Origin: Saccharofermentanales bacterium
GTDB taxonomy: Bacteria; Bacillota; Clostridia; Saccharofermentanales; UBA5734
DNA: 63,596 bases
Direction: 5' to 3'
NCBI GenBank assembly: GCA_038326615.1
Contig: JBBQKF010000006.1
Location: 1-63,596 of the forward strand
The notes under the pieces are model-generated. The model had not been told where the DNA came from. It ran no database searches and saw only the letters and a list, made by a program, of their open reading frames with translations. The number at the start of each line of letters is the position of its first letter. Position 1 is the stretch's first letter. Below, piece by piece: positions 2,207-44,493 of this stretch. The position numbers and the translations under genes are program-made.

Positions 2207-2248
2207 AAAAGCACCGGCATTCTAAAATTTTAGAATGCCGGTGCTTTT
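2207..2248 (-). terminator. Rho-independent terminator of sugar ABC operon 1
   Basis: Perfect 42-bp palindrome AAAAGCACCGGCATTCTAAAA/TTTTAGAATGCCGGTGCTTTT immediately after the binding-protein stop. Confidence 0.85.
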
Positions 2249-2259
2249 GAGGAGGAGAA

Positions 2260-3354
2260 TTAATAGTTAAACTGATCAACATTCGTTTTATCAAATATGA
2301 GTGCTGGTCCAAGTACTACCATTTTGTCTTTTATGTCTCTTGCGCCAAGTCTGCCGGCTGTAAATGTTGTTGAGGAAGCTGTAATTGTTCCTTTTGACAT
2401 TTGATAAGCAGCCTGGATTGAAAGATATCCGAGGTCCATACAATTCCACAAAACGCCTGCATCGAATGGATTGTTATCATTTTTGATATACGCTTTAAGT
2501 CCATTCGGTGTCCCTAAACCAGTCATTGTTATTTTAGTAGGATCTGGTTTAGTTGCTGCTGCCTCATATTGTGAACCGAGAGCAGGTGCTGCCATTGAAG
2601 TTAATGCGATTGCAGCTTGAATTTGTGTTGCTCCAGGGCCCATTCTTCCGATTAGTGTTCCGCATTGTGTCTGTGTTGCTGTTTCATCAGCACCTGGATA
2701 ATAAACGTCAGTTGCTTCGTTTGCAATTTTCATCCAGCTGTAATCTGATGTTGCAAGTAATTTTTTAATTTCTGCAAGCCATGCTTGTTGGTTTGCATCT
2801 GTTTTAGCGGAAGAAACAACACCTAAATTAACTGATTTACTTGGGCCATAGCCTTTTGCAATTAATTTTTTAGCTGCGCCATCAACTAGTCCAAATGCAA
2901 CGCCTTCAGCTACAACCTGATTAATAAACAAGTCTCTTGCATCTGTTTGTGCATCTGCATCAAATGTCAAAACTTTAATTCCCTTGGATTGAGCTTTTTT
3001 GAGTGTTGTTGCAATAGCAGTAGGATCATTTGGCGAAACAAGAATAACATTAACTTTCTGTGCTATCCAGCCTTCGAGAATATCAACTTGTTTTTGGTTT
3101 GTAGCTTGATCCTGTGGTGGCCCATCATAAATAAATTCGATTTTAACTCCATCTTTGTTCATTTCGTCGACAGCTTCTTGTGCTCCTGTTTTAACTGCAT
3201 CAAAGTAGTTTTCCCCCTTGAATTTAGGAAGCATCGCGATTTTGATAGCACCGCTGCTAGTTTTGCTACAGCTGATCATGAGAGCGGATGGCACTAACAT
3301 TAGTACAACCAATGTAAAAGCCAAAATTCGTGAGACCATTTTCCCTTTTTTCAT
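2260..3354 (-). CDS. Monosaccharide ABC transporter substrate-binding lipoprotein (RhaS/LsrB-like)
   Basis: Signal peptide with Cys; IAMLPKFKGENYF, VLTFDAD and LWNCMDLGY motifs resemble rhamnose/AI-2-type binding proteins. Confidence 0.8.
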   Translation of the reverse strand: MKKGKMVSRILAFTLVVLMLVPSALMISCSKTSSGAIKIAMLPKFKGENYFDAVKTGAQEAVDEMNKDGVKIEFIYDGPPQDQATNQKQVDILEGWIAQKVNVILVSPNDPTAIATTLKKAQSKGIKVLTFDADAQTDARDLFINQVVAEGVAFGLVDGAAKKLIAKGYGPSKSVNLGVVSSAKTDANQQAWLAEIKKLLATSDYSWMKIANEATDVYYPGADETATQTQCGTLIGRMGPGATQIQAAIALTSMAAPALGSQYEAAATKPDPTKITMTGLGTPNGLKAYIKNDNNPFDAGVLWNCMDLGYLSIQAAYQMSKGTITASSTTFTAGRLGARDIKDKMVVLGPALIFDKTNVDQFNY

Positions 3355-3533
3355 ACCTTACCTCCAAAATTTTATTTGCCTTTATGGCATGTTCCTATGA
3401 CTTTATGCTGACAGAAAAAGTGCTCTAACTCCCTCTGTTAAACAACCTATATAAATAATTTAAAACCAATATTATTTATCACATCAATATTATCAATAAT
3501 TGAAAAAATATCATCAATTGAAAAGTTAGCAGT

Positions 3534-4538
3534 TTATGTTTTTAATGCTGATGCAACTTCTGTTATTTCACTAGTCTTAACTGCTATTATTCGTTTCATT
3601 TTTGCTCTTTCATTAAGTACACTGTAAACAACAAGGCTTGTAACGAGAACCAATCCATTAACAATAGTCTGCATATCAATTGGAATGTTAAGAACAGTAA
3701 GTCCGCTATTTAATAACGCAATGATTAATGTTGCAAGAATTGTTCCTTTCATGTCTCCATATCCTCCCAAAATGCTTGTGCCGCCTAGAACAATTACTGT
3801 TACAACTTTTAATGCAAGACTCATGCCTGCGTCATACTTTATACTTGTAAACCGTCCAAGCCATATAAGCGCTGCTATTCCACATATTAGTCCGCTCATA
3901 ACATAAATTATTATTTTAACCTTATCGGTGTCAATTCCTGAATATTTAGTTGCACCTTCATTAAGTCCAATTCCTTTGAGTTCTCTTCCTAGAATTCCTT
4001 TAGATAAAATAAGTGTAAAAATTATTGCAAAAACAATATAAATATATATCTGAATTGGTATTCCAAGAAAGTTTGTTGTGCCTAATAATTCTGATATTTT
4101 GTACGAGTAGACACTATCACCTGTTGAGATTCCACGAGCGATTCCAAGATATAGAAACATCGTTGCCAGCGTAGTAACAAGTGGAGAAATTTTTAGTTTA
4201 GAAATAATAATCCCATTTAGAAGTCCACACAACACTCCAGTGGTCAGTGTAATTACAAGACCTGCAATCCCGCTAGATGTCTGTTTTGCAACAATTCCAC
4301 CAACCATAGCAGATAAAACAAGGTTTGATCCTACAGATAAATCAATCCCTCCTGTAATGATTATAAGGGTGACAGGTAAAGCCATGAGACCTATTTCTAC
4401 AATATTTTTTAACATTACTCCTATAAGATAATCCGGAGAAAGGAAAGCCGAATTAAGACTGGCAATCACTATAAATAGAATTATAAAAAGGAAAAGCAAT
4501 GCCATATTGAAGTTAAATTTAATTTTTGGAATTTTCAT
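3534..4538 (-). CDS. Monosaccharide ABC transporter permease
   Basis: ITGGIDLSVGS and VLGGTSILGGYG motifs (RbsC/LsrD family). Confidence 0.9.
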   Translation of the reverse strand: MKIPKIKFNFNMALLFLFIILFIVIASLNSAFLSPDYLIGVMLKNIVEIGLMALPVTLIIITGGIDLSVGSNLVLSAMVGGIVAKQTSSGIAGLVITLTTGVLCGLLNGIIISKLKISPLVTTLATMFLYLGIARGISTGDSVYSYKISELLGTTNFLGIPIQIYIYIVFAIIFTLILSKGILGRELKGIGLNEGATKYSGIDTDKVKIIIYVMSGLICGIAALIWLGRFTSIKYDAGMSLALKVVTVIVLGGTSILGGYGDMKGTILATLIIALLNSGLTVLNIPIDMQTIVNGLVLVTSLVVYSVLNERAKMKRIIAVKTSEITEVASALKT

Positions 4539-4664
4539 TTTTATGCCCTTTCTAGATTGTAAATAAAATATATCTTTGCTCAGTTTTTAGTTTATTTTAA
4601 ATATTTCTTCCATGAGTTTAATCTGTCTAATAATTCATTCCGCAAGATTAGTCTGTTTCAAAAT

Positions 4665-5690
4665 CTATGCCGCAAGATTAGCCATTTTAACTTCTTTAAT
4701 AACCTTTGACTGTTTCTTTTTCATAACAAATCTCGATGCTGCAATTACAACAGATACAATAATTATTACTCCTTGTATTGCATCAGACCAGTCAGGACTT
4801 ATTCCCATATAGTTTATAGCAGGGGATATTATAGAAAGTATAAGCGCACCAAAAACTGTTCCTATCACTTTACCACTCCCTCCTGAAATACTAGTTCCAC
4901 CAAGCACAACCGCTGCGATGAAAGTCATTTCAAGTCCACTGCCCATTGTTGTTGTTACACGTTGACTTGCTGTTGCGATAATTGTACCCGAAACCCCAAA
5001 TAGTGCTCCTGCTATTGCGTATGCAATTACGATTGTCCGATCAACATTAATTCCTGCAAGTCTTGCACCATTTTTATTATTCCCAATTGCATAAAGTTTT
5101 TTTGAAAATTTTGAATATTTCATAAAAAGGATTGATATGATTGTTATCACTAAAACAATTACTATACTAGCTGGTATTATGCCAAATAATTTTGCATCAA
5201 ATGAGAGCCAGGTGAAGCTTCGTGGCAAGTCATAAATCGAACCTTCTACAACAATTGGCAAAATTCCAGTAAAGAGCTGTGTGGTGGCAAGGGTTGCAAC
5301 AATAGCAGGGATTCTAAGTTTAGTTATAAACAATCCATTTACACTGCTTAACAAAGCGCCAGTTATCATTGCTACGGGGAGTAAAACAAGGAGGCTTGCG
5401 CCTGTCTTTCCTACACCTGCAATTGTTATACATACAACTGATATTAATGCGCCTGAAGAAACATCAATGTTTGAAGTTATAATTATCAAATTCATTCCGA
5501 TGGCCGCAACAAGTACATAACTAAAGCGATTGAGGATACTCATGACATTGTTCAATTCGAAAAATCCTTTAGTAAAAAATTGAAGAAAAACTATAATAGC
5601 CAGCAAGAATATTGCTAGAAATAATTCCGTTGTGAAAAACTTTGAAATTTTAAGTTTTGATTTATTGTTTTTTAACATATTAGTAACCAT
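4665..5690 (-). CDS. Monosaccharide ABC transporter permease
   Basis: NIDVSSG, YAIGNNKNGARLAGIN and AAVVLGGTSISGGSG motifs. Confidence 0.9.
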   Translation of the reverse strand: MVTNMLKNNKSKLKISKFFTTELFLAIFLLAIIVFLQFFTKGFFELNNVMSILNRFSYVLVAAIGMNLIIITSNIDVSSGALISVVCITIAGVGKTGASLLVLLPVAMITGALLSSVNGLFITKLRIPAIVATLATTQLFTGILPIVVEGSIYDLPRSFTWLSFDAKLFGIIPASIVIVLVITIISILFMKYSKFSKKLYAIGNNKNGARLAGINVDRTIVIAYAIAGALFGVSGTIIATASQRVTTTMGSGLEMTFIAAVVLGGTSISGGSGKVIGTVFGALILSIISPAINYMGISPDWSDAIQGVIIIVSVVIAASRFVMKKKQSKVIKEVKMANLAA

Positions 5691-5730
5691 GATTGACTCA
5701 AGATAAAATCTTTTAAATCAATCATCCTTC

Positions 5731-7233
5731 CTATTGTATTTCCAAGGCAAGTTTTAGAATTTTTTCCTGCGTTGCTTCACTTCTGTCAAAACACCCTGCA
5801 ATATGGCCTTCTTGCATAACATAAATCCTGTCACACATTCCGAGAAGTTCTGGGAGTTCACTTGAAATCATTATGATTGTCAGCCCTTTTTGGGTGAGTT
5901 CACTAATCATTTTATGAATTTCAGCTTTAGCATTAACGTCAACACCACGAGTCGGTTCATCAAGGATCAATAGCTTTGGATTAAGCGCCAAGGCTTTTGC
6001 AACCGATACTTTTTGTTGATTTCCTCCTGAAAGGTTTGTCACAAGGAATCCTGTATCAGGTGCCTTAATGCCTATCTCCTCAATATACTTTTGGGCTACA
6101 ACGTTTTCTTTAGATTCGTCTAACATTCCAAATTTTGCAAATCGTGAAAGCTGTGGCATGGTTATATTGTTTTTAACACTCATATCAATTACAAGTCCAT
6201 ATTTACCGCGATCTTCAGAGACATAAACAATCCCGTTTTCCATCGCGTCATTGTAATGCTTAATGTTAATTTTCTTGCCTTCAAAAATCAAATCACCACT
6301 TGTTTTCTTAATTAGTCCACATAAAGTCTGTGCAAGTTCTGTTCTGCCAGATCCTGCAAGCCCAGCAAATCCAAGTATTTCACCATGTTTGACATTGAAC
6401 TCAACGTTGTTTAGTAATCCTGATACATATAAGTTTTCGGTTTTCAAAAGCTCTCCACCGATTTCGGTTTTAGTTTTTGGATAATAACTCTCCATGCTTC
6501 TTCCAACCATATCTTTAACTAATGAATCTTTATTCGTTTCGCTAACAATTTTTGTTGAAATATAATTCCCGTCGCGTATTACTGTAACTCGGTCACAAAC
6601 CTGAAATATTTCCTCAAGCCGATGACTGATATATACGATTCCAACTCCCTCTTCTTTCAGTTTTCGTATTATTGTGAATAATGCATCAACTTCACGTTGA
6701 GTAAGGGACGCTGTTGGTTCATCAAGAATTAGAATTTTTGCATCAAATGTGAGAGCTTTAGCTATTTCAATCATTTGTTTTTGCGCCATTCCAAGGGTTT
6801 TGATTTTAACATTAACATCGATTGATGAATTTAATCTCTCAAATATTTTCTTGGCATCTTCTGCCATTTTTTTATAGTCAATTACTGGAATGATACCAAA
6901 TGTTTTTTTTTGTTCTTCATGTCCAAGAAATATGTTCTCGAGAACTGTCATCTCTTCAAAAAGACTTGTTTCCTGATAAATTATAGATACACCTTTCCGA
7001 TACGATTCAAGTGGACTATTAAAGTCCTGCTTCTCGCCATTCAGAAATATTTCACCTTCATTTTGCTTATACACACCAGAAACAACTTTCATCAAAGTGG
7101 ATTTCCCTGCACCGTTTTCTCCACAAATTGCATGAATTTCACCGGGCATTAAATCAAAATTAATTCCACTAAGTGCAAGTACACCAGGAAATGTTTTTAC
7201 TATATTTTTTAGCTCTAGGACTGGTTGGTTCAT
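5731..7233 (-). CDS. Monosaccharide ABC transporter ATP-binding protein (double NBD)
   Basis: GENGAGKST, LDEPT and LSGGNQQK motifs; 500 aa RbsA/MglA type. Confidence 0.93.
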   Translation of the reverse strand: MNQPVLELKNIVKTFPGVLALSGINFDLMPGEIHAICGENGAGKSTLMKVVSGVYKQNEGEIFLNGEKQDFNSPLESYRKGVSIIYQETSLFEEMTVLENIFLGHEEQKKTFGIIPVIDYKKMAEDAKKIFERLNSSIDVNVKIKTLGMAQKQMIEIAKALTFDAKILILDEPTASLTQREVDALFTIIRKLKEEGVGIVYISHRLEEIFQVCDRVTVIRDGNYISTKIVSETNKDSLVKDMVGRSMESYYPKTKTEIGGELLKTENLYVSGLLNNVEFNVKHGEILGFAGLAGSGRTELAQTLCGLIKKTSGDLIFEGKKINIKHYNDAMENGIVYVSEDRGKYGLVIDMSVKNNITMPQLSRFAKFGMLDESKENVVAQKYIEEIGIKAPDTGFLVTNLSGGNQQKVSVAKALALNPKLLILDEPTRGVDVNAKAEIHKMISELTQKGLTIIMISSELPELLGMCDRIYVMQEGHIAGCFDRSEATQEKILKLALEIQ

Positions 7234-8321
7234 GGTTGCCTCCTGATTTTGCCGTACTTTTTTGCTGCATCAAAAAATGCATAAACATTTTCGACTGGTG
7301 TGTCTGGCTGCATATTATGAGCTGGTGCGATTATATATCCTTTTCCACCATTAGTTGCTGCAATACATCTTTTTACTTCTTCTTCAACATCGGCAGTAGT
7401 GCCATGTGGTAGAACATCCTGTACATCGATTGCCCCAAAGAAAATAAGCTTATCTGCATATTGGTTGTAGAGGAGAGACAGTTCCATGCCTTCCGCCATT
7501 GGCTGCAGCGGATTTAAAACATCTAATCCTATCTCAATAAGATCTGGTATTATTGGATTAATCGATCCACACGAATGATAAGCAATTTTGATTTCGGGGT
7601 TTTTTGCTTTAAATACATCAAACATTTTTTTCATTCTGGGCATAAAATGTTCCCGCCACATATCAGGAGATATCATCATTCCCTTTTGCGTTCCTACATC
7701 ATCGCCGGTCCAAATCATATCCACACCAAGTTCAATCATTTTTAATCCACAAAGTGTGCTATACTCAGCGATTCGGTCAAGCAATACAAAGATATAATCT
7801 TCTTCAGTTGCTAAATCCATAATGAATTTTTCCATCCCAACAAGATTCCATGCAAGCTCAAATATGCTGGCTTCCAAATCTCCGATGATTCCATATTGAT
7901 TTTTGTATTCTGAAATGTTTCTGACGGCAAATTCCCAGCGGCCAATATCAAGTGGATTCGGAAATGTATATTTATTTAAATCTTCAATTGATTCACAAAT
8001 AGATAATGGGCGAACAACTGCTTCCGAATAAAGGCCAACTGTTTTATACTCAAGACCCCATTCGTCCCTCACATTGCCATTTTGCAATTTGATTGTTGGG
8101 CTCCCTCGAGTTGCAGCTACGAGTACTGCATCATTCCCTAGTTTCAATAATATATCACGATGAGAAATCCTTGTTGCAAGAAATGAATCTTCCATTTGAA
8201 CATCACAGTGCAACTCGACTGCAAGAAGCTGTGCTAATTGTTCAGTCAGGTTTGCTACAATCGGAACCCGATCAGGACTAAGACCATTTATTGTAGCTAT
8301 AAATCTTTCTTTACTGTTCAT
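7230..8321 (-). CDS. URO-D/MtaA-CmuA superfamily protein (not HemE)
   Basis: MNSKERF...PDRVP start, DEWG, GDDVGTQ...MISP, YHSCG and APAHN motifs. Confidence 0.85.
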   Translation of the reverse strand: MNSKERFIATINGLSPDRVPIVANLTEQLAQLLAVELHCDVQMEDSFLATRISHRDILLKLGNDAVLVAATRGSPTIKLQNGNVRDEWGLEYKTVGLYSEAVVRPLSICESIEDLNKYTFPNPLDIGRWEFAVRNISEYKNQYGIIGDLEASIFELAWNLVGMEKFIMDLATEEDYIFVLLDRIAEYSTLCGLKMIELGVDMIWTGDDVGTQKGMMISPDMWREHFMPRMKKMFDVFKAKNPEIKIAYHSCGSINPIIPDLIEIGLDVLNPLQPMAEGMELSLLYNQYADKLIFFGAIDVQDVLPHGTTADVEEEVKRCIAATNGGKGYIIAPAHNMQPDTPVENVYAFFDAAKKYGKIRRQP

Positions 8322-8387
8322 ATGACCCCCATAAAACCTTAATCAAATTAAATTTCACACCACTTGTCTTGTCTTTTCTATGGCATA

Positions 8388-8451
8388 ATTTTAACACGAC
8401 TGTTTCTTGGAGGGTATATATTATCTAATTTGAATTATGCAAAATCTAATA
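8388..8451 (-). promoter_or_regulatory. Putative AraC/YesN-activated promoter of operon 1
   Basis: Extended -10 TGnTAAAAT at 8388-8396; ATCTAAT direct repeats at 8423 and 8444 (21-bp spacing). Confidence 0.45.
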
Positions 8452-8454
8452 CAT

Positions 8455-9357
8455 TTACAAATTTCTAAACTCTGAGGGGGTCTTCCCTGTTATGTTTTTA
8501 AAAACCCGACTAAAATAGAACTGATCGGCAAAGCCTGTTTGTTCAGCAATATCAGCTATTAAAAGGTCTTTACGTTCTCTTAGCAATGCTTTTGCGCTTG
8601 AAACCTTAAGTGAAATCAAATATTCGTTGTAAGTCATATTTTTTGTTTTTTTAAATATTTTGCTTAAATAGGGCTGACTAATCGCAAATTTTTTGCAGAT
8701 AACTACAATACCATTGTCACAATCCAGATTAATTTTTAGATACTTGTCTATTTCATTGATAATTTTTTCGGCGTTAGTCAAATAATTCTCCGAATAATTA
8801 CCGTTTTTATGATTTTCGTTGTTATGGTTAATTCCATTAATAATTTCCGTATCGTTAACACCTTTAGAGCCGATAGCAATGTCTTTGACATTAACACCTT
8901 TAAAAATGTCCATATCATTCATATCGTTAATGTCTCTGATTAATGAATCGTCAAGTTTCAAAAGTTCTATTTGTTTTCGATTATCAAGCTTCAATGCGAT
9001 CTTGTCTAATAGTTTTAAAACTTTCGCTGGTTCAACTGGCTTAAGTAAATATTCTTCTGCGCCATAAATAAATGCATCGTGAACATAATCAAAATTGTCA
9101 TATCCACTTAATACAACCGATAAAACTTCAATACTGCTATCTGCAATTGTTTTCAAAAGATCAATCCCAGTTTCTCCGGGCATCTTAATATCTGTAAAAA
9201 TAACATCTAGCTTAAGATTCTCTATTTTAATTCTTGCTTGTTTTGCCGAAAACGCTTCCCCCACAATTTCAAATCGAGAATCCTTTTTTATAACTTTCTC
9301 TAGCGTATCCAAAATGGCCGGTTCATCATCAACTAATAGTATTCTATATTCAGACAT
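8455..9357 (-). CDS. YesN-type response regulator (receiver + AraC HTH)
   Basis: LLVDDE, TDIKMPG and YLLKP motifs; C-terminal GFADQFYFSRVFK...TPSEFR. Confidence 0.92.
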   Translation of the reverse strand: MSEYRILLVDDEPAILDTLEKVIKKDSRFEIVGEAFSAKQARIKIENLKLDVIFTDIKMPGETGIDLLKTIADSSIEVLSVVLSGYDNFDYVHDAFIYGAEEYLLKPVEPAKVLKLLDKIALKLDNRKQIELLKLDDSLIRDINDMNDMDIFKGVNVKDIAIGSKGVNDTEIINGINHNNENHKNGNYSENYLTNAEKIINEIDKYLKINLDCDNGIVVICKKFAISQPYLSKIFKKTKNMTYNEYLISLKVSSAKALLRERKDLLIADIAEQTGFADQFYFSRVFKNITGKTPSEFRNL

Positions 9358-9558
9358 TTTTGACGTCCTTTCCTTAATAATTTCTATAATAATACATCCC
9401 TTCTAAAAATTATGAAACACTCATTACAACTTCGAAATTTATTTGAACACCAATTTAAGTTTTCGCATCATTTTTAGTTTCAATTCTAGTATTTTTTTAC
9501 TATTATAGTATTAGTATTCGTTTCTGTCCCTAATCACAAATTAGTATTTGTTTATTCT

Positions 9559-9653
9559 TTAATTTTTGTATTAGTCTTAATTTAGTTAATTTTTGCATTA
9601 GTCTTAATTTAGTTAATTTTTGTATTAGTCTTAATTTAGTTAATTTTTGCATT
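9559..9653. repeat. 27-bp tandem repeat, about 3.5 copies
   Basis: Unit TAATTTTTGYATTAGTCTTAATTTAGT. Confidence 0.9.
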
Positions 9654-9683
9654 GAGATAGTCATGGCCCTATTCTTAGTCATG

Positions 9684-9790
9684 GTCTTAGTCTTAGTCTT
9701 AGTCTTAGTCTTAGTCTTAGTCTTAGTCTTAGTCTTAGTCTTAGTCTTAGTCTTAGTCTTAGTCTTAGTCTTAGTCTTAGTCTTAGTCTT
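9684..9790. repeat. (GTCTTA)n microsatellite, about 18 perfect copies
   Basis: Read directly from the sequence. Confidence 0.97.
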
Positions 9791-9851
9791 CTCTTGATTC
9801 TAACTTTTGGGATACGACTTAGCTCTTTATATGAATTTTATATTTCTATCA

Positions 9852-11666
9852 CTAAATTATTATTTCTTCATCTGAATTTTTTGTTTCTTCCTTACTTGTC
9901 TCTATTTGTACTGTAATTGTCATACCAGAGACAAGATTATTTTCAATATTGTAATTGAAAGAATCGCCAAGATAAAGCTTTAGACGAAGCAGTGTGCCGA
10001 TTAATCCCATTCCACCGAATTTAATTTTACTTTTAATTTGTGAGTTTTCCAGATTTGTCTGTGATTCCGAAAGAATACTATCTATTTCCTCGAGTTTATC
10101 TTGGCTTATACCACAGCCATTGTCAGAAACTTCAATAAAAACAACACTATTAATTCTGTAAGTTTTAATACTAATAAATACTGTCTCATTCTCTATAAGA
10201 CTATATTTAATTGCATTTTCTGCTAAAGGTTGAAATGTCAATTTGGGAATTAAAACGGAATAAGTATTTTCATCAATTTCGATTGAATAATCGAGCCTTT
10301 GTCTGTATCTGCTTTTCATTAATTGCATATATGCTTTAAGATTTTCTGACTCCTCTTCAATTGACATAATCGTCGACTCATAGTCGGATGCATATCGAAG
10401 AATTTCAGATAAATTATAACATGCCTCGGCCGCCTCCTGATTGTCACCACTTTCACACATACTTGCGATACTCCCCAAAGAATTATACAAAAAATGCGGT
10501 CCGATTTCAGATTGCAGAATATTAAAAAGTGTTTTAGTTTGAATTGATTCAAGAACTGTCTGCTTTGTGAGTGACTCCGTGAGACGAGTTTTCATTTCCT
10601 TGAATGAACGATTAAGAACCTCAGTTTCATAATCTTTGCTTATATAATCAAATGGCTCTTTAAGATTGTTCAAATCAACCTTTTCCATCTTTTTTACAAA
10701 AGTCCGAATTGGTTTAGTCATTTTTCGTGTTACTATTGTTACAAACATTCCTGACAGAATAAAAAGAATTAAAACAATTACGATAAGATATAAGAGTATA
10801 ATTTTCATTGAAGAAAATAAAACTGACTTGTCGAGTATAAGGTAAGATTTATATTCTGTATAATTTGAATCTGTTACACTAATCAGTTCGTTTGATGTCT
10901 CAACCACCTTAGCACTTTCATTTTTGGTTTTATCAACTATTGATTTTATATAACTGTCTTCACTATTACGGTTTATATTAGTATAAAAAACGGAGCCATC
11001 TCGTCCAACTATAGCAAGGCTTAAATTGACCTTATTCCACTCGTTAACACAGATTTTTTCAATTACCTCGATTTTTTGTTGAACTTCAATATACCCGATA
11101 ACCTTATCTCCGTTTTTTATTGCTCGAATAAGTGAAATAACTTTCGCTTCGCTTTTCTTATCCCATGGATCTATTGTTGGTGGCAAATATATTCTTCGTC
11201 CGCTTTGAACGACAATATCAGTATACCAGCTTGATTTGAATATTTCCTTTTTAACTTGTCCTTTTGTAACATCAGTATTCCCAGTAGTAAATAAATCTCC
11301 ATATACGGTAAAAATAGAAATTCTGTGTATGTTTATTTTATTAATATAACTTTTTACTAGAATAGCTTTTATAATTGATTCATTTGCTGCCTTTTCGGTG
11401 TCTTTGCTTTTAACATCAACAATTGTGTTTAAAGCGTTGATAAGTTCAAAATTCGATGCAAGTTCAATTGAATTAACATCCATACTTTTCATTTGCATAT
11501 CAACCTGCGCCATTGTGGCTGTACCAAATTGTTCTACATTACTCTTTCCACTTGTTAATAGGATATATAAATTGTATCGGTAGAATGCTAAAGCGGACAA
11601 TATAATTATAGAAATTATAATTGCAGTATATGTAATAATTAGCTTCCCTGATAAAATTCTTTTCAT
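9852..11666 (-). CDS. YesM/LytS-type sensor histidine kinase
   Basis: Two TM segments, HAMP-like region, LQSEIGPHFLYNSL, QPLAENAIK and DNGCG motifs; start moved to ATG 11666 behind RBS AAAGGTGG. Confidence 0.9.
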   Translation of the reverse strand: MKRILSGKLIITYTAIIISIIILSALAFYRYNLYILLTSGKSNVEQFGTATMAQVDMQMKSMDVNSIELASNFELINALNTIVDVKSKDTEKAANESIIKAILVKSYINKINIHRISIFTVYGDLFTTGNTDVTKGQVKKEIFKSSWYTDIVVQSGRRIYLPPTIDPWDKKSEAKVISLIRAIKNGDKVIGYIEVQQKIEVIEKICVNEWNKVNLSLAIVGRDGSVFYTNINRNSEDSYIKSIVDKTKNESAKVVETSNELISVTDSNYTEYKSYLILDKSVLFSSMKIILLYLIVIVLILFILSGMFVTIVTRKMTKPIRTFVKKMEKVDLNNLKEPFDYISKDYETEVLNRSFKEMKTRLTESLTKQTVLESIQTKTLFNILQSEIGPHFLYNSLGSIASMCESGDNQEAAEACYNLSEILRYASDYESTIMSIEEESENLKAYMQLMKSRYRQRLDYSIEIDENTYSVLIPKLTFQPLAENAIKYSLIENETVFISIKTYRINSVVFIEVSDNGCGISQDKLEEIDSILSESQTNLENSQIKSKIKFGGMGLIGTLLRLKLYLGDSFNYNIENNLVSGMTITVQIETSKEETKNSDEEIII

Positions 11667-11802
11667 ATAATCCCACCTTTCATGCATTTCAATATTATCA
11701 CTAAAATCACAAAAGTGAAATATTATTTTAAAAGTGGAATTTTTATGATATACACTATGGCTTTTTAGTAATAAAAATCTTAGACTTAATATAATATTTA
11801 AT

Positions 11803-33254: not shown

Positions 33255-34307
33255 TTATCTGTTTTCGATATTGTAAAAAGCAAGGATATTTTCTAAAGGA
33301 ACATCCGCTTGCAAAAAATGACATGAACTCATTATATAACCGCCATTTTCTCCTAGGACAGAAGAAAGATATTTGGCATTCTGATTAACCTCTTCAATTG
33401 TCCCATGTGGTAGTATTTTTTGAGTTTCTCCTGCTCCATGAAAAGTCAGACTGTTTCCAAATTCGGCTTTGATTTTTTTAGGTTCCATGTTCCTTGCAAC
33501 TGTTTGTACAGGGTCAAGTATCTTTATACCCATTTCAACAAACTCTCCCATAAGATTATAAGCAGATCCACAGCAATGGAAAAACGGAGTCACACCATAT
33601 GATTTGGCTAGCGAAATATATTCTACCATTGAAGGTTTGAAAAATTCTCTGAACATATCTTTGCTAATCAACAAGTCAGTCTGGGATGAATAATCATCCG
33701 CCAACTGCATTGCATCTAATCGCCCTTTACCAGCCTTTAATAACCTCTCATGGTAATCGATATGCCAATCAAAACATCGTTTTAGTAAATGTTTAATTAG
33801 TTTTGGGTTCAACATCATATCAACAAAAATATCTTCCATGTTTCTAACAAGAGTCGGGTAATAAAAAATACTGGCAAATCCACCAATCAAAAATCTACCC
33901 TCATATGTTTTACAATTCGCCGTTATACTATTGAAATCCCAATTATCCAAATCAGGTAACTGTAAAACTCGGTCAATGTCTTGAGGAGTTTCGCATTCTT
34001 GTGTAACATAATGTACAACCTCATCATGGGCTCCATAATTATTGTAGACTTTTTTGAGTTTGCTACCGCCCCAGCCAATAATCAGGCCATTATTATCTTT
34101 TTTTTCAGGTTCTCTATTCACTTGAGGGTCAACCCATGCTACATCAATTTCTAGCCCATCCAGTACATCTTTCATTTTATCTGTTTTGAAATGTTTTAAC
34201 ATAATATCCCATATTTCTCCCACGGCTTGGAAATCTACTGGAGTTCTGTCAGGTTGTTTATGATTCAGAGCACATATAACTCTTTCTCTAAATTCCATAT
34301 TTTTCAT
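33255..34307 (-). CDS. URO-D/MtaA superfamily protein
   Basis: RERV...PDRTP, ADDYSSQ...LIS, FHCCG and SSCHF motifs. Confidence 0.85.
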   Translation of the reverse strand: MKNMEFRERVICALNHKQPDRTPVDFQAVGEIWDIMLKHFKTDKMKDVLDGLEIDVAWVDPQVNREPEKKDNNGLIIGWGGSKLKKVYNNYGAHDEVVHYVTQECETPQDIDRVLQLPDLDNWDFNSITANCKTYEGRFLIGGFASIFYYPTLVRNMEDIFVDMMLNPKLIKHLLKRCFDWHIDYHERLLKAGKGRLDAMQLADDYSSQTDLLISKDMFREFFKPSMVEYISLAKSYGVTPFFHCCGSAYNLMGEFVEMGIKILDPVQTVARNMEPKKIKAEFGNSLTFHGAGETQKILPHGTIEEVNQNAKYLSSVLGENGGYIMSSCHFLQADVPLENILAFYNIENR

Positions 34308-34330
34308 CCTTTCTTAAGTGCTAGTTCGTG

Positions 34331-35377
34331 TTAATAGTTACCATACTTTTTTACTGCGTCAAAAAGAGATAAAATATTTTCAATGCTAGTATCAGCTTGT
34401 ACGTTATGTGCTGGGCCAATCAATAGTCCTCCGCCCTTACCTATTGTGTCCATTCTTAATTTTACTTCATCAAAAATATCTTGTCTGGATCCTTTAGGAA
34501 GAGTTTTTTGTATACATATGCTACCCCAAAATGATAGTCTATCGCCAAATTTATCCTTAACCATAGCAGGATCCATTGCTAGCGGCTGTATAGGATTTAG
34601 AACGTCTAACCCGATTTCTATAAGTTCTTCAATAATGGGGATAATGTATCCACAGCTATGATATGCTATAATTATGTTTGGATTCTGCTTTTTGAATTCA
34701 AAAATTAGTTTTTTCATTCTTGGTTTAAGATATTTTCTCCACATCTCCGGAGACATTAGCATTGAATTCTGCATGCCTACATCATCACCAAGCCAAAGCA
34801 TATCCACCCCTTCTTTGATATATCTAATCCCTGCTTTTAGCGGGAATTCCATAACTTTATCAAATAAATCATTTGCGTATTCTTCATTACCTGCCATATC
34901 CATGAGCATGTTATCAATCCCTCTAAGATACCAGGCGGCCTCGAAAATCGAACAAGTAATAGCGCCACAAATAAAGTGACTATCTCCATATTTGTGCATG
35001 AGTTCTTTCATCGGTTTGTATATTTCATCATTCTCTGGATTCGGTATTTGATATTTCAAAAGCAGTTCGCCGTCCTCGTCATTTTCCAAAGGGTGTTCCA
35101 CGATTGTTGTATATCTTCCTGATTCATTTTCAAAGTATCTCCATTTACAGCCCCAGTCACAAATATATTCTTCGCCTTTTCCGTAATAACTATTACCTAT
35201 TCCAGCACCACTCATAAGCATATCGTTTCCAAGTGCGACTTCCATATCATGCTCATTATAAATACCAAAGTGTTCAAACAATGCCGCTGACACTTCAGGT
35301 ACAAATGAAGCAAAAACCGGCACACGATCTGGAATTTTTCTCATTAATGCAATTTTTACTCTTTCTTTAGAATTCAT
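34331..35377 (-). CDS. URO-D/MtaA superfamily protein
   Basis: MNSKERV...PDRVP, CDWG, GDDVGMQ...MSP, YHSCG and GPAHN motifs. Confidence 0.85.
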   Translation of the reverse strand: MNSKERVKIALMRKIPDRVPVFASFVPEVSAALFEHFGIYNEHDMEVALGNDMLMSGAGIGNSYYGKGEEYICDWGCKWRYFENESGRYTTIVEHPLENDEDGELLLKYQIPNPENDEIYKPMKELMHKYGDSHFICGAITCSIFEAAWYLRGIDNMLMDMAGNEEYANDLFDKVMEFPLKAGIRYIKEGVDMLWLGDDVGMQNSMLMSPEMWRKYLKPRMKKLIFEFKKQNPNIIIAYHSCGYIIPIIEELIEIGLDVLNPIQPLAMDPAMVKDKFGDRLSFWGSICIQKTLPKGSRQDIFDEVKLRMDTIGKGGGLLIGPAHNVQADTSIENILSLFDAVKKYGNY

Positions 35378-35389
35378 ACTCAATCTCCT

Positions 35390-36652
35390 CTAGATCCCAC
35401 GGAATTTATTTAATATTTTATACATTTCGATCAGATTTTCAACTGGAACATTTGCGACAACATTATGTATTGCTGCAAAGACAAAGCCGCCGTCCGGAGA
35501 AAAGATTTCGAGTCTTTCCTTAACTTCTTTTTGCACTTCTTCTTTGCTGCCAAAAGGCAAAGTTTTTTGAGTATCTATACCGCCTCCCCAAAAAACCAGC
35601 TTGTCCCCAAATTCATTTTTCAACCGCTGTGGATCCATTCCTGTTGCGCTGCATTGAACAGGGTTTACGATATCCACCCCCATTTCAATAAAGTCGTTTA
35701 GCAAAGGATAAATCGCCCCACAAGTATGATAAAATGTTTTCCAACTTGTATTCTTATGAATCCAGTCATTAATCCTTTTGTAGAAAGGTTTATATAATCT
35801 TCTAAAAACATCCGCTGATGTAAATGTAGCATTCTGAGTTCCAAAATCCGTCCCGGAAAGCCAAATTGTCTGAATTCGGTCGCCAACAGATTGTTTGTAT
35901 AGTTCAAGGTTCTTTAGTGCAATGTCGCATTGATAATCAAAAACTGCTTCAATATATTCTGGATAGAGTAAATGAGCCATCAGCCACTCATCCATTTTTC
36001 TTATCCCCGTGGGTTTAGTCAGAAAAGGGCCTGGTAGTTCTGCAACATCACCGAAACCAGCTCCTCCGAGTACCCCCATTATTGCATAGTCAGTGTATTG
36101 ATAAAGCTCCTTTGACTTTTTTTCCCAGCACTTACAGGTCTCTTCCGAATGCAGATTATAAGAATCTTTAAAATCCTTTACTGGGGTCAGATTTTCTTCA
36201 TCAACTAGGCCGGATCTATCAATATTATCAAAGAAAAACCCATTTTTCGGCATATGTAGACTATACTCAGCATTCCTGTCACCACTGGGATAAACATAAA
36301 TATCACCATCTCCGATTACATCATATTCGAAATTTTGTGGCATTAATACAGGTGTTCCGTCACTCATTGTCCATTTTTTACTCGGTGTACTATTGATTCC
36401 CATTAATGTCCCCGGATTCCATAGAGGTAGTACATCACCTTTAACAATATCAAGCAAATCAGGTTCGATTTCGCCAAGCATCTGATATGGCTCGACAATT
36501 TTAATATCATGTTCATTCAAACCAAGTGCTTTTCTTAATTTAAAAACAGTACTTGCATTCATTCCAGTTTGCCCACAACCTCCTAAATCCATGGGAGTAT
36601 AGTCAGGTTGTTCATGGTTTATCGCCGCGATCACTCGTTCTCTTGAATTCAT
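35390..36652 (-). CDS. URO-D/MtaA superfamily protein (long form)
   Basis: MNSRERV...PDYTPMDLGG, GTDFGTQ, YHTCG, FWGGGIDTQ and AAIHN motifs. Confidence 0.85.
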   Translation of the reverse strand: MNSRERVIAAINHEQPDYTPMDLGGCGQTGMNASTVFKLRKALGLNEHDIKIVEPYQMLGEIEPDLLDIVKGDVLPLWNPGTLMGINSTPSKKWTMSDGTPVLMPQNFEYDVIGDGDIYVYPSGDRNAEYSLHMPKNGFFFDNIDRSGLVDEENLTPVKDFKDSYNLHSEETCKCWEKKSKELYQYTDYAIMGVLGGAGFGDVAELPGPFLTKPTGIRKMDEWLMAHLLYPEYIEAVFDYQCDIALKNLELYKQSVGDRIQTIWLSGTDFGTQNATFTSADVFRRLYKPFYKRINDWIHKNTSWKTFYHTCGAIYPLLNDFIEMGVDIVNPVQCSATGMDPQRLKNEFGDKLVFWGGGIDTQKTLPFGSKEEVQKEVKERLEIFSPDGGFVFAAIHNVVANVPVENLIEMYKILNKFRGI

Positions 36653-36724
36653 ATTTCCTCCAGTAGCTATTTCAAAATCTCACTCATAACTTCATGCTTT
36701 CTCAAGTTAATTCTATAAATAAGA

Positions 36725-37705
36725 TCAAGCTAGTCTTTTTGATTTTTTTGCAACCATCTGGATAATAACTGCAATGACCAGAACTACCCCGGTAGCAATA
36801 TCACGAAATGCTTGAGGAGCGCCAATCATAATCAATCCATTTGATAATATCCCTGTCACCACAACTCCTAAGAATGCACCAAAAACGTTGCCTTCTCCAC
36901 CAGCAAGTATCGTCCCCCCCAGTACTGCTGCAGCGATTGATTCAAGTGCGTATGAACTACCAATGCTTGGATTTGCAGTTGCAATACGGGATGCCAGCAT
37001 GATTCCGGCGAAACCTGCCAACAAGCTACTCAATGCATAGGTTTTCATGGTTACTCTTTGAATATTTATCCCTGCAATTTCAGCTGCTTTTGGATTTCCG
37101 CCTGTGCAATATAGATGTCGGCCGAACTTTGAGTATTTAAGTATAAACCCAAAGAAAATGTACATAAATATGAGAATAATGATTGGAAGAGGGAACTTTA
37201 TTGCTCCAAATGTAGTTGCACCTAGAAATTTAAATGCCGGCAGATTGACTGTTATCGGTTGTTTCGTTATAAGGATAACAACACCACCTAATATGAAACT
37301 CATTGACATTGTTGCAATAAATGGTGATACTCTGGCTTTTGTTATCAAAATACCATTTGTTAACCCAATGGTTAAAGCTACAAGCAACCCTGCTGGAAGT
37401 CCTATCCAATAGGGAAGGCCCAGCATCGAAGGAGAACATATAGCTCCCACTACCACTCCAGAAAGTGCTGCCACTCCACCAACCGATAGATCAAATCCGC
37501 CATTAAGAATACATAGTGTCTGTGCTATAGCAATGATGCCAAGAGTTGCTATTTCTCTGCCAACAGGCAAAAAATTATCAAGTTTTAAGAAATATGGCGT
37601 CAAGTTTGAAAATATCAGAATTTCAATGCCAATCAAAATGACAAGCAACAACCTGTTCATAATTGAATAATTTAATTTCAAAAAAATCCTTTTTTTATTA
37701 TTCAT
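36725..37705 (-). CDS. Monosaccharide ABC transporter permease
   Basis: GGFDLSVG, GGNPKAAEIAGI and AAAVLGGT motifs. Confidence 0.9.
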   Translation of the reverse strand: MNNKKRIFLKLNYSIMNRLLLVILIGIEILIFSNLTPYFLKLDNFLPVGREIATLGIIAIAQTLCILNGGFDLSVGGVAALSGVVVGAICSPSMLGLPYWIGLPAGLLVALTIGLTNGILITKARVSPFIATMSMSFILGGVVILITKQPITVNLPAFKFLGATTFGAIKFPLPIIILIFMYIFFGFILKYSKFGRHLYCTGGNPKAAEIAGINIQRVTMKTYALSSLLAGFAGIMLASRIATANPSIGSSYALESIAAAVLGGTILAGGEGNVFGAFLGVVVTGILSNGLIMIGAPQAFRDIATGVVLVIAVIIQMVAKKSKRLA

Positions 37706-37725
37706 TATCTTTATAATCCCCCAAA

Positions 37726-39222
37726 TTAAGTCTTAATTGCATAGCTTAATATATCTTCTTCGCTAAGCTCGCTTATTGATTCCAATTCCACTTCTATCCT
37801 GCCATCACGCATAACCAATAATCGATCTGACATTGCAAATATTTCCGGCAGTTCAGATGAAATCATGATGATCGATTTTCCTTCCATTGTAAGTTTGTCC
37901 ATAAGTCTGTATATTTCAGCTTTTGCACCAACATCAATACCTCTAGTCGGTTCATCAAAAATCAATATATCCGCTTTTGCTCCTAACCATTTGGAAATTG
38001 CGATTTTTTGCTGATTCCCACCTGAAAGAGTTTCTACTTTGGTCCTTACACTTGGTGTTTTTGTATTTAACATTTTCACCATTTGCTTTGTGAATTTTTC
38101 TTCTTCAGTGATTCTAATAATTCCATTTTTTATAAAATTTTTCAGACTTGGCATTGTTGTATTTTCTGTAACATTTAATCCTACTGCCAGGCCTTCACCA
38201 CGCCTGTCTTCTGTAAGAAATCCGATTTTAAGATTTACTGCATCCTCTGGATGCCTTATTTCAACGATCTTATTGTTAACTTTTATTATTCCGGAATCTT
38301 TCTTTTGCAGTCCGAATATCAGTCTTGCTGTCTCGGTTCTACCGGCACCTACAATTCCGAACATTCCAAGAATTTCACCTTTTTTTAGACAGAAAGATAC
38401 ACCTTGAACTTTGGATCCCCATGATAGGTCAGAGACTTCCAATACATTTTCATCGATAACATTTCCTCGGTGTTTTTCATATAATTTCATATCTCTTCCC
38501 ACCATCATTGTAATGATGTTCTGCGTAGTGATCTTGTCAACATCATTTGTTCCTATGTAATTACCGTCTTTAAAAACTGATACTCTTTGACAAATCTGAA
38601 ATATTTCTGCAAGTCTATGACTTACATATATTATTGAAATCCCCTGTGCTGTTAATTGCTTTATTAACGCGAACATTTCTGCAGTTTCTTCATCCGACAA
38701 TGAACTAGTGGGTTCATCAAATGCAATAATATTTACATCCATAGAGATTGCTTTCATTATTTCAACTAATTGTTGATGTCCCATACTCAATGTTGATACA
38801 ATTTGTTCAGGTCTAAAAGAAAGGGCGGCGGATCCAAGCCTATTTTGAAGTTTAGTAGTATCTTCATTCATCTTGTTCCAGTCAACAATTCCTTTTTTCA
38901 TCGGATAATTAGTCATAAAAACATTTTCTGCAACAGTCAAAGTTTGTGCCAAATGTAATTCCTGAGGAATTAATGCGATTCCATTTTTTCTGCACTCCAT
39001 TGTGTTTTTATAATTGACTTTTTCGCCTAAGTATTCAATTGTTCCTTCGTCTTTTTCATATAAGCCAGTTACAATTTTTATCAATGTTGATTTGCCTGCT
39101 CCATTTTCACCGCATAGGGCATGCACTTCTCCTTTACGAAGATCAAATCTTACATTATTTAATGCTTTGACACCAGGAAAACTTTTACTGATATTCTCAC
39201 ATTTTAATATAACCTCATTCAT
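37726..39222 (-). CDS. Monosaccharide ABC transporter ATP-binding protein
   Basis: GENGAGKST, FDEPT and LSGGNQQK motifs; likely start ATG 39222. Confidence 0.93.
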   Translation of the reverse strand: MNEVILKCENISKSFPGVKALNNVRFDLRKGEVHALCGENGAGKSTLIKIVTGLYEKDEGTIEYLGEKVNYKNTMECRKNGIALIPQELHLAQTLTVAENVFMTNYPMKKGIVDWNKMNEDTTKLQNRLGSAALSFRPEQIVSTLSMGHQQLVEIMKAISMDVNIIAFDEPTSSLSDEETAEMFALIKQLTAQGISIIYVSHRLAEIFQICQRVSVFKDGNYIGTNDVDKITTQNIITMMVGRDMKLYEKHRGNVIDENVLEVSDLSWGSKVQGVSFCLKKGEILGMFGIVGAGRTETARLIFGLQKKDSGIIKVNNKIVEIRHPEDAVNLKIGFLTEDRRGEGLAVGLNVTENTTMPSLKNFIKNGIIRITEEEKFTKQMVKMLNTKTPSVRTKVETLSGGNQQKIAISKWLGAKADILIFDEPTRGIDVGAKAEIYRLMDKLTMEGKSIIMISSELPEIFAMSDRLLVMRDGRIEVELESISELSEEDILSYAIKT

Positions 39223-39288
39223 TTTGTTCCTCAATTCAAAATCAGAGTGTGATAACCAGAAAATCTGGTCATCACACACTTCGTTTCC

Positions 39289-40308: not shown

Positions 40309-40363
40309 TTCTATTTCCTCCATTTTTATTTTTTGTCAGAGATTATTCTCTAACTTTAACAAC

Positions 40364-40427
40364 ATTTTATCAAAGCATTGTTTTGATTTAAATGATGTAT
40401 ACTTGTTATTTAATGCAGTAAAATTGT
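40364..40427 (-). promoter_or_regulatory. Putative AraC/YesN-activated promoter of operon 2
   Basis: Extended -10 TGnTAAAAT (40364-40372); direct repeats GTATACTTGT (40397) and GTAAAATTGT (40418), 21-bp spacing. Confidence 0.45.
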
Positions 40428-40527
40428 CTTGTTGTTGTTTTTAATAAAAAAAACAGCACTAGTGCGTGCTGTTCTGTGTTTTATGTCATAAATATTTTTT
40501 TAAGACTCAAAGTACATAAATAATACT

Positions 40528-41538: not shown

Positions 41539-41640
41539 TTATTTATCTAAATAACTTATCATTGTGTGACAAATTATTCAGGCCTCCTTTCTCAAATTTA
41601 TATATGCTCATTTAAAATGCATTTGCATCTTCTATTTGAA

Positions 41641-44492: not shown

Positions 44493-44493
44493 A

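Follow-up and report, generated by a model that had tools for sequence, protein, structure and literature searches.

A URO-D-fold protein in a sugar importer operon as a candidate methyltransferase of corrinoid-dependent O-methyl-sugar demethylation

We analyzed a 63,596-nucleotide stretch of a Saccharofermentanales genome (assembly GCA_038326615.1, contig JBBQKF010000006.1, positions 1 to 63,596), hereafter called the window, in which a minus-strand operon for a sugar ABC importer also encodes a single protein of the uroporphyrinogen decarboxylase (URO-D) fold, termed P0001. We lean towards the reading that P0001 serves as the methyltransferase I (MT1) that confers substrate specificity on a corrinoid-dependent O-methyl-sugar demethylase, whose substrate is probably a methyl-rhamnose. 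This reading is supported because the gene contexts of orthologs join rhamnose catabolism with a corrinoid protein, the ATP-dependent reductive activator of corrinoid proteins (RACo) and a pterin methyltransferase, and because RACo co-occurs with relatives of P0001 at the genome level.

Layout of the operon

Based on open reading frame (ORF) calls, Pfam and NCBIfam models, the unit 11687..2207 comprises seven genes and a terminator (Table 1). The original prediction, made from the letters alone, had listed a kinase, a response regulator, a URO-D protein, an ATPase with a 4-bp overlap, two permeases, a binding protein and a terminator, and all of these were recovered in that order. Its span of 2260..11666 held for the genes as described, with the minor difference that the kinase ORF, taken from its first ATG, starts at 11687. 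The start of the ATPase gene and the stop of the P0001 gene share bases 7230–7233, and the P0001 gene is predicted to be translationally coupled to a monosaccharide-type CUT2 importer. Pfam annotation of the operon agreed with the earlier statement that it holds no isomerase, sugar kinase or glycosidase; an aldolase was likewise not found within it, and P0001 is its sole enzyme.

Table 1 Features of the minus-strand operon in the window.
Feature	Positions	Strand	Details
YesM-like sensor histidine kinase	9852..11687	-	611 aa; PF06580 His_kinase 75.2 bits, HATPase_c 30.8, HAMP 22.1
Kinase-regulator spacer, tandem repeats	9358..9851		494 bp
YesN-like response regulator, AraC-type DNA-binding domain	8455..9357	-	300 aa; Response_reg 80.4 bits, HTH_AraC 75, HTH_18 70.3
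P0001, URO-D-fold Zn-type methyltransferase candidate (proposed MT1)	7230..8321	-	363 aa; PF01208 125.3 bits
CUT2-type sugar ABC ATPase	5731..7233	-	500 aa; two ABC_tran domains, 200.6 bits
ABC permease 1	4665..5690	-	341 aa; BPD_transp_2 123.1 bits
ABC permease 2	3534..4538	-	334 aa; BPD_transp_2 133 bits
Substrate-binding protein, diverged RhaS/LsrB type	2260..3354	-	364 aa; Peripla_BP_4 128.9 bits
Intrinsic terminator closing the operon	2207..2248	-	19-bp perfect stem + UUUUU, -30.7 kcal/mol

The fused double ATPase, BPD_transp_2 permeases and Peripla_BP_4 binding protein together identify the importer as CUT2 type. The nearest NCBIfam models of the ATPase were XylG (584.6 bits) and RbsA (577.6 bits), both under their cut-offs. 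The binding protein scored 177.6 bits against the RhaS model TIGR02637, short of the cut-off of 342.25, and 103.4 against LsrB; its best solved relatives are the rhamnose-binding proteins 4kvf (8e-35) and 5bq3 (9e-31).

A consensus terminator scan found nothing 3' of the binding-protein gene, whereas direct folding revealed the hairpin 2248..2207 (z -8.34; 0 of 200 shuffles equally good). The spacer between kinase and regulator contains (TCTTAG) x19.7 at 9673–9790 and a 27-nt unit x3.5 at 9559–9653; the corresponding gap in the orthologous locus L001 is 33 bp, and the repeats probably have no function for the system. The same kinase cluster adjoins the orthologous operons in L001, L002, L003 and L005. 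Unrelated housekeeping genes flank the unit, with an ECF (energy-coupling factor) S-component and CoaX below and DUF960, L7/L12 and L10 above.

A second minus-strand locus of the same design lies at 33255-44510 of the window. It starts with a REC-AraC regulator (44510..42906), followed by three binding-protein-like genes and then by a CUT2 importer ATPase (39279..37726) and permease (37705..36725). Its only enzymes are three consecutive URO-D paralogs (36652..35390, 35383..34331 and 34307..33255), all with a His-Cys-His triad.

Family, metal site and phylogeny of P0001

P0001 belongs to the URO-D superfamily, scoring 125.3 bits against PF01208 (gathering score 23.9). It reached only 24.2 bits on the HemE model TIGR01464 (cut-off 302.95), which excludes it from that equivalog, and 49-92 bits on the MtaA/CmuA, MtaA and MtbA models, whose cut-offs are 235-600 (TIGR01463, MtaA/CmuA, 80.5 vs 235.4; NF040654, 76.1 vs 400; NF004889, 92.2 vs 244). 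The RQAGR motif, which we take to be the N-terminal substrate-binding motif of HemE, was not found in P0001, whose N-terminal translation reads ...DRVPIVANLTEQ... / ...DRVPIVANLTEQLAQ...; the motifs AYHSCGS at 247-253 and APAHNMQPD at 332-340 were present. The original prediction was therefore correct in describing a protein that lacks RQAGR and carries H-x-C (YHSCG) and a C-terminal His (APAHN). It had also named grouping with HemE or with a known methyltransferase II (MT2) as the outcome that would speak against it, and neither the model scores nor the His-Cys-His triad indicate such a grouping.

By sequence, the sole solved relative detected was the Methanosarcina mazei methylcobalamin:coenzyme M (CoM) methyltransferase 4ay7/4ay8 (E 5e-11; profile 3e-14), which was also the only entry found in a profile search of solved structures. 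In the alignment with 4ay7, YHSCG stands opposite LHICG and APAHN opposite APGCG, and the third metal position, a His in P0001, aligns with the Cys of APGCG. The AlphaFold2 model of P0001 had a mean local confidence (pLDDT) of 93.5 and a predicted TM-score (pTM) of 0.91. In Foldseek its best solved match was again 4ay7 (TM 0.71/0.76, 20% identity), with HemE structures next; the top 26 entries were all MtaA-like or HemE (TM 0.68-0.76), and MetE was far lower (TM 0.4-0.57). A protein atlas lookup returned only clusters automatically named URO-D. Two assignments were rejected on these data: HemE on the model score, the metal triad and the missing RQAGR motif, and an MtaA equivalog on the below-cut-off scores and the His at the third metal position.

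The predicted metal triad is His249-Cys251-His335, and none of H249, S250, C251 and H335 varies among 27 aligned relatives, the most distant of which is 51% identical. According to PMC10418091, S-methyltransferases of the UroD superfamily have a His-Cys-Cys zinc site, and in O-methyltransferases one or both Cys are exchanged for Glu/Asp or non-coordinating residues. P0001 lacks the His-Cys-Cys site expected of thiol methyltransferases and has at least one Cys replaced, as expected of an O-demethylase MT1, with His as a further variant beyond those described (PMC10418091). The site is predicted to be 'harder' than in thiol-methylating enzymes, because its third ligand is His while those enzymes use His-Cys-Cys.

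We surveyed the metal site in 120 aligned URO-D proteins from related loci and the window's genome. The His-Cys-His (HCH) triad was by far the most common (86 proteins), followed by HDH (11), DDH (6), HDN, HCN and HCC (3 each) and HCD (2); six further triad types were found in one protein each. Among the 30 URO-D paralogs of the window's genome, 12 are HCH and two are HCC (on contigs C44 and C55, both matching Pfam URO-D over the full length); HDH, DDH, HDN, HCN, HDE, HDS, HCD and HAH make up the other triads.

With P0001 as query, a word-indexed protein search scored 8000 candidates, 6009 of which matched at E <= 0.001. The best 120 matches had 51-83% identity, and their source names, where given, were solely 'uroporphyrinogen decarboxylase (family protein)' or 'hypothetical protein'. 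An IQ-TREE phylogeny (LG+C20) was calculated from 36 rows, comprising a 29-row clade around P0001, four Bacteroidota, two distant sequences and one further paralog from the same genome, with 80 rows omitted; a FastTree phylogeny of all 116 rows agreed on the placement of P0001. P0001 is sister to L001 (ultrafast bootstrap/SH-aLRT 95/97) within a seven-row clade (96/95) of P0001, L001, L006, L005, L024, L002 and L003. This clade is nested in a 12-row clade (100/100) in which all rows except L006 belong to ABC-linked operons, and the rha- or corrinoid-linked L029, L030, L049, L031, L032 and L034 form a neighboring clade.

Gene neighborhoods and partner genes

A scan with one genome per species gave 175 relatives among 188 matched stretches. 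In the best 80 loci we called ORFs over 10 kb flanks, clustered them and named them by Pfam, excluding the window; L033 and L036 have no full-length target ORF and were retained in the counts. The loci span Bacillota, Fusobacteriota, Bacteroidota, Spirochaetota, Thermotogota, Atribacterota, Planctomycetota, Verrucomicrobiota and Acidobacteriota. A CUT2 ATPase was a neighbor in 22 of the 80 loci, a Peripla_BP_4 binding protein in 17 and a class II aldolase in 12. RhaA and FGGY kinase were each found in 5 loci and RhaM in 4. Corrinoid markers of any kind occurred in 6 loci: a corrinoid protein in 3 (L006, L029, L030), RACo in 4 (L029, L049, L055, L062) and a pterin methyltransferase in 1 (L029).

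Neighborhood analysis had been suggested in the original prediction as a check, and it placed a corrinoid protein gene directly after the ortholog in L006, L029 and L030. L006, from a Fusobacteriaceae metagenome-assembled genome (MAG; 65% identity), is the closest ortholog with catabolic neighbors. Its genes run on one strand with intergenic gaps of 12-48 bp, in the order AraC regulator, rhaB, rhaA, aldolase II, rhaM, a 556-aa polytopic membrane protein, URO-D, corrinoid protein and a URO-D/thioredoxin fusion, so that the string holds a rhamnose set, a transporter and a methyltransferase set only. In L029 (Paradesulfitobacterium ferrireducens, 57%), the order is DeoR, ASRT, substrate-binding protein, ATPase, permease, URO-D, URO-D, corrinoid protein, Pterin_bind, RACo, LutC and LutB, which we read as a complete putative four-component methyltransferase system within a sugar ABC operon. 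The MT2 role in L029 would be filled by the pterin-binding protein, which leaves the URO-D orthologs there only the substrate-side MT1 role. L030 (54%) has an ABC importer, FGGY kinase, RhaA-like isomerase, URO-D and corrinoid protein, with an aldehyde dehydrogenase close by.

Other orthologs stand in sugar loci of several designs. L031, L032 and L034 (54%) share LacI, URO-D and an ABC importer, followed by rhaM in L031 and L034; L031 continues with a second URO-D, rhaB, rhaA and aldolase II, and RhaA and FGGY matches also occur in L032 and L034. In the Opitutaceae loci L088 and L091 (41%), a lyxose-type isomerase, DeoC aldolase, ribulose-5-phosphate (Ru5P) epimerase, URO-D, a fusion of aldolase II and short-chain dehydrogenase (SDR) and an MFS sugar transporter were found. 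The Bacteroidota ortholog is third in a recurrent string of GH43-like, MORN-repeat and URO-D genes (L056, L058, L059, L065, L070, L073, L077, L078, L081, L082, L089, L092, L094), surrounded by BNR_2, sulfatase, GH97, esterase, NosD-like and DUF4832 genes, with RACo adjacent in L055 and L062. In the sister subclade of L025, L026, L028 and L043, a gene of the phosphotriesterase family (PF02126) comes after the URO-D-ABC operon, with Peptidase_M24-like flanks; these neighbors suggest that a different substrate is processed further.

RACo and RhaA also meet outside the orthologous operons. G009 and G012, two Oscillospiraceae MAGs that contain the orthologous operons L025 and L028, have a RACo gene immediately upstream of RhaA at another site in the genome. 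L103:4905-10064 reads URO-D (338 aa), corrinoid protein, DUF2284, RACo and RhaA, and L104:1988-10784 reads URO-D, corrinoid protein, URO-D (451 aa), CobW, DUF2284, RACo, RhaA and GH1. DUF2284 is also found beside RACo in L049 and occurs as a single copy in the window's genome (C2:52261-52896). URO-D proteins of ~450 aa lie downstream of the corrinoid protein in L006 (11766-13139, with a C-terminal Thioredoxin_3 domain and 152 bits on MtaA/CmuA) and in L104 (3704-5059); they are candidate MT2 proteins with a thiol acceptor, and these genomes may do without the folate route.

The window's genome, which is 96.7% complete at 3.45 Mb in 237 contigs, contains 28 URO-D paralogs by Pfam and 30 by phmmer, many of them amid ABC importer genes and large unannotated ORFs. 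The sequencing runs that contain the sequence are DNA runs from sediment, sand and freshwater metagenomes, one of them perhaps its source, and no RNA run was among them. A corrinoid protein of the cognate type is present in a single copy (C22:20567-21208, 213 aa, DxHxxG motif); it shares 54-58% identity with its counterparts in L006, L029 and L030 and scores 258 bits to that of L103. A second, divergent corrinoid protein is encoded on C27 with a full-length URO-D, amid signalling genes. At C22:18955-26392 a PocR and AraC helix-turn-helix regulator precedes the corrinoid protein gene, and a class II (B12) ribonucleotide reductase lies near. PocR domains are linked to 1,2-propanediol, a product of rhamnose fermentation.

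A stand-alone pterin methyltransferase is found at C8:43521-44378 (NF005719, 355 vs 259; 303 bits to that of L029). In C8:43521-47447 it is followed by a gene similar to methylenetetrahydrofolate reductase (MTHFR) and by EtfB/EtfA, possibly a module for methyl-tetrahydrofolate oxidation or for bifurcation. RACo occurs twice, at C20:28027-29847 beside 5-formyl-tetrahydrofolate cyclo-ligase and on C38 beside carbon monoxide dehydrogenase (CODH), acetyl-CoA synthase (ACS) and CdhD; among the relatives examined, the ACS-linked type (335 bits) was seen solely in the window's genome and its congener. Formyltetrahydrofolate synthetase (FTHFS) is present, as are rhamnose genes: RhaA and aldolase II on C1, a second RhaA on C76, FGGY kinase on C39 and RhaM on C114. 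Predicted genes for all parts that the model needs are therefore present in the genome, though dispersed, and the partners of an O-demethylase MT1 (cognate corrinoid protein, MT2 and activator) are found genome-wide here and adjacent in orthologs.

At the genome level, RACo (PF14574) was detected in 62 of 80 genomes carrying a relative of P0001 (34 of 40 plus 28 of 40) and in 1 of 14 control genomes. In 201 genomes sampled from the order of G049, including G049 and G069 themselves, RACo was found in 14; carriers, defined by the P0001-relative profile at E <= 1e-70, numbered 8, and RACo occurred in 4 of these vs 10 of 193 non-carriers (Fisher p = 9e-4). In a set of 31 genomes related to that of the window, 22 have URO-D matches (1 to 46 each) and 21 have RACo. 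The range of 1 to 46 URO-D matches per genome occurs inside one family (relatives G280-G297), to which the window's genome belongs. Of the 26 genomes in the wider clade, 19 have RhaA, as do L004 and every one of the 14 genomes in the nearest clade.

In 17 of the 18 RACo-less carriers a B12-binding_2 match was found, which lay in a 213-260-aa ORF in 16. Four RACo-less loci of Cytophagales/Cyclobacteriaceae (L066, L067, L080, L083) have a 233-aa neighbor with a weak PF02965 match (MetH activation domain, 28.9 bits), possibly an alternative route of corrinoid reactivation.

Proposed mechanism, alternatives and relation to known systems

In the proposed mechanism, the YesM/YesN-like two-component pair would switch the operon on, and the RhaS-like CUT2 system would capture and import an O-methyl monosaccharide, for which O-methyl-L-rhamnose or the methyl ether of a closely related 6-deoxyhexose is the likeliest candidate. 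The Zn site of P0001 (His249, Cys251, His335) would bind and polarize the ether oxygen, and probably a neighboring hydroxyl too, so that the sugar alkoxide could become the leaving group. Zn in MtaB activates methanol in a like manner. Co(I) of the C22 corrinoid protein would then attack the methyl carbon, the C8 pterin-binding methyltransferase would act as MT2 and hand the methyl group to tetrahydrofolate, and RACo would repair oxidized Co(II). The methyl group on folate could enter CODH/ACS or be oxidized, and the freed sugar could pass to RhaA/RhaB/RhaD. Gene content, family assignments, metal-site residues, ortholog contexts and co-occurrence were observed directly; the methyl transfer itself, the identity of the substrate, the corrinoid protein used and the fate of the methyl group are inferred from comparative genomics. 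The original prediction that P0001 demethylates an imported O-methyl deoxy sugar gains from the ortholog contexts and the RACo co-occurrence, with the qualification that P0001 could not act alone: it would depend on a corrinoid protein together with its activator and on an acceptor for the methyl group, all encoded on other contigs.

Several observations weigh against this mechanism. Most of the 80 loci carry neither a corrinoid gene nor RhaA, and the operon in the window likewise has none. RACo was not detected in 18 of 80 carrier genomes, many of them incomplete MAGs, nor in half (4 of 8) of the carriers in the background sample, in which removal of the seeded G049 and G069 leaves RACo in 2 of 6 carriers (p = 0.044). 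The association among the 31 relatives (RACo in 21 of 22 URO-D-positive vs 0 of 9 URO-D-negative genomes, G306 being discordant) is overstated because kin are not independent. In L103 and L104 the URO-D protein beside the corrinoid protein and RhaA is another paralog type (His-Cys-Asn), whose ortholog in the window's genome is C102:1410-2507; these clusters appear to tie corrinoid methyl transfer to rhamnose, but not via P0001's own type. The imported sugar may not be a rhamnose derivative, because the binding protein is under the RhaS cut-off and shares only 30-33% identity with its counterparts in the rhamnose-linked L031 and L030 operons. Chemically, an alkoxide is a far poorer leaving group than that in aryl methyl ethers, and the corrinoid O-demethylases found in print all act on aryl ethers, the literature search having given no aliphatic-ether precedent.

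P0001 could instead be a corrinoid-independent metal enzyme of the URO-D/MetE fold, catalyzing alkyl transfer to a thiol, sugar-acid decarboxylation or isomerization, with the corrinoid links stemming from other paralogs. We regard this as unlikely. It would account for the 74 of 80 related loci with no corrinoid gene nearby and for the 18 carrier genomes with no RACo match, and it is in line with the presence of the B12-independent Zn methyltransferase MetE among the structural neighbors and with Thermotogota and Bacteroidota contexts that suggest the use of amino sugars and sulfated glycans, for which demethylation is not evidently required. The MetE matches are weak, however, HemE signature and model are unmatched, a corrinoid protein gene directly follows the ortholog in L006, L029 and L030 (with MT2 and RACo too in L029), and RACo co-occurrence lies far over background.

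A corrinoid MT1 with a different substrate, such as methyl-fucose, methyl-xylose, a methylated cyclitol (pinitol type) or an AI-2-like furanose, seems to us improbable. The scores of the binding protein on the RhaS and LsrB models and its low identity to rhamnose-linked counterparts leave room for such a substrate, and the ~27 non-His-Cys-Cys paralogs stand in varied sugar loci and should therefore serve many substrates. Rhamnose is favored by the two best solved binding-protein relatives, by the L006 ortholog inside a complete rha operon and by RhaA in all 14 nearest-clade genomes and L004.

It is very unlikely that P0001 is an aryl O-demethylase MT1 for methoxylated aglycones of plant rhamnosides, placed beside a rhamnose transporter by metabolic association only: the characterized URO-D-type O-demethylase MT1s found in the literature do all use aryl methyl ethers, and GH1 lies beside RhaA in L104, but the gene is coupled to a monosaccharide-type CUT2 importer, aromatic-compound genes are absent from this and the orthologous operons, and L006 holds nothing beyond rhamnose genes, a transporter and the methyltransferase set. 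A true HemE or MtaA-type methylcobamide:thiol MT2 misplaced in a sugar operon, to which the Pfam URO-D match and the M. mazei relative might point, is hardly credible given the below-cut-off model scores, the missing RQAGR, the third metal-site His in place of Cys, the separate His-Cys-Cys paralogs on C44 and C55 and the pterin-binding protein in the MT2 role of L029.

If P0001 is the MT1 of an O-methyl-sugar demethylase, a very large family with a misleading name would gain a function, aliphatic ethers would come within the scope of corrinoid O-demethylation, and in sediments and guts the breakdown of glycans would be tied to C1/acetogenic metabolism and to the demand for B12. We tentatively extend the proposal to a general, as yet undescribed hub-and-spoke system in anaerobes, a possibility that we hold with some reserve, in which ~27 URO-D MT1 spokes in this genome, each with its own importer or polysaccharide locus, would share a hub of corrinoid protein, RACo and pterin methyltransferase. 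If so, methyl ethers of plant, algal and bacterial glycans would be cleaved without oxygen and their methyl groups fed to folate and the Wood-Ljungdahl pathway, and cob(I)alamin would gain aliphatic sugar ethers as substrates by way of a His-Cys-His zinc site. Four defined proteins would be enough for a direct test.

Many plant, algal and bacterial glycans contain O-methyl sugars, whose methyl group stands in the way of normal catabolism. In PMC6292453, methylated sugars are described as able to inhibit carbohydrate degradation, and methyl removal as a biocatalytic challenge. Our literature search, for which subscription journals were mostly outside reach, returned corrinoid enzymes that demethylate aryl ethers, methanol, chloromethane and quaternary amines but none that acts on sugars, and no oxygen-free route for methylated sugars; the main text of a rhamnose-regulon paper (PMC3870299) mentions neither uroporphyrinogen nor corrinoid. 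The known sugar demethylase is the P450 for 6-O-methyl-D-galactose of marine bacteria. It reportedly solves the same problem, taking the methyl ether off before catabolism, and its gene lies amid polysaccharide and sugar genes; it needs O2 and releases formaldehyde, whereas the proposed route would be oxygen-free, would pass the methyl group to corrinoid and then folate and would use an unrelated fold (PMC6292453, PMC10033563).

The importer shares its CUT2 architecture with RhaSTPQ and LsrACDB, and its binding-protein relatives are rhamnose-binding, but none of its components reaches an NCBIfam equivalog cut-off. With HemE, P0001 has the Pfam family and the fold in common; it differs in its model score, the missing RQAGR motif, the sugar-transport context and a conserved metal triad not required in HemE. 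The MtaA-type enzyme 4ay7/4ay8 has the same (beta/alpha)8 URO-D fold and an aligned H-x-C motif, yet P0001 is only 20% identical to it, scores below the cut-offs, has His and not Cys as the third ligand and is proposed as a donor-side MT1 rather than a thiol-methylating MT2. The closest parallel is with the aryl O-demethylases of acetogens and Desulfitobacterium, whose four parts (URO-D methyltransferase, DxHxxG B12 protein, pterin methyltransferase and RACo) recur in the L029 operon and the window's genome, and which, according to PMC10418091, share URO-D membership and the replacement of a Cys ligand with P0001. In contrast to their aryl methyl ethers, the substrate proposed here would be an ABC-imported aliphatic sugar methyl ether; the MT1 gene stands apart from that of the corrinoid protein and is coupled to the transporter, the triad is His-Cys-His, and ~27 MT1-like paralogs face a single corrinoid protein of the cognate type.

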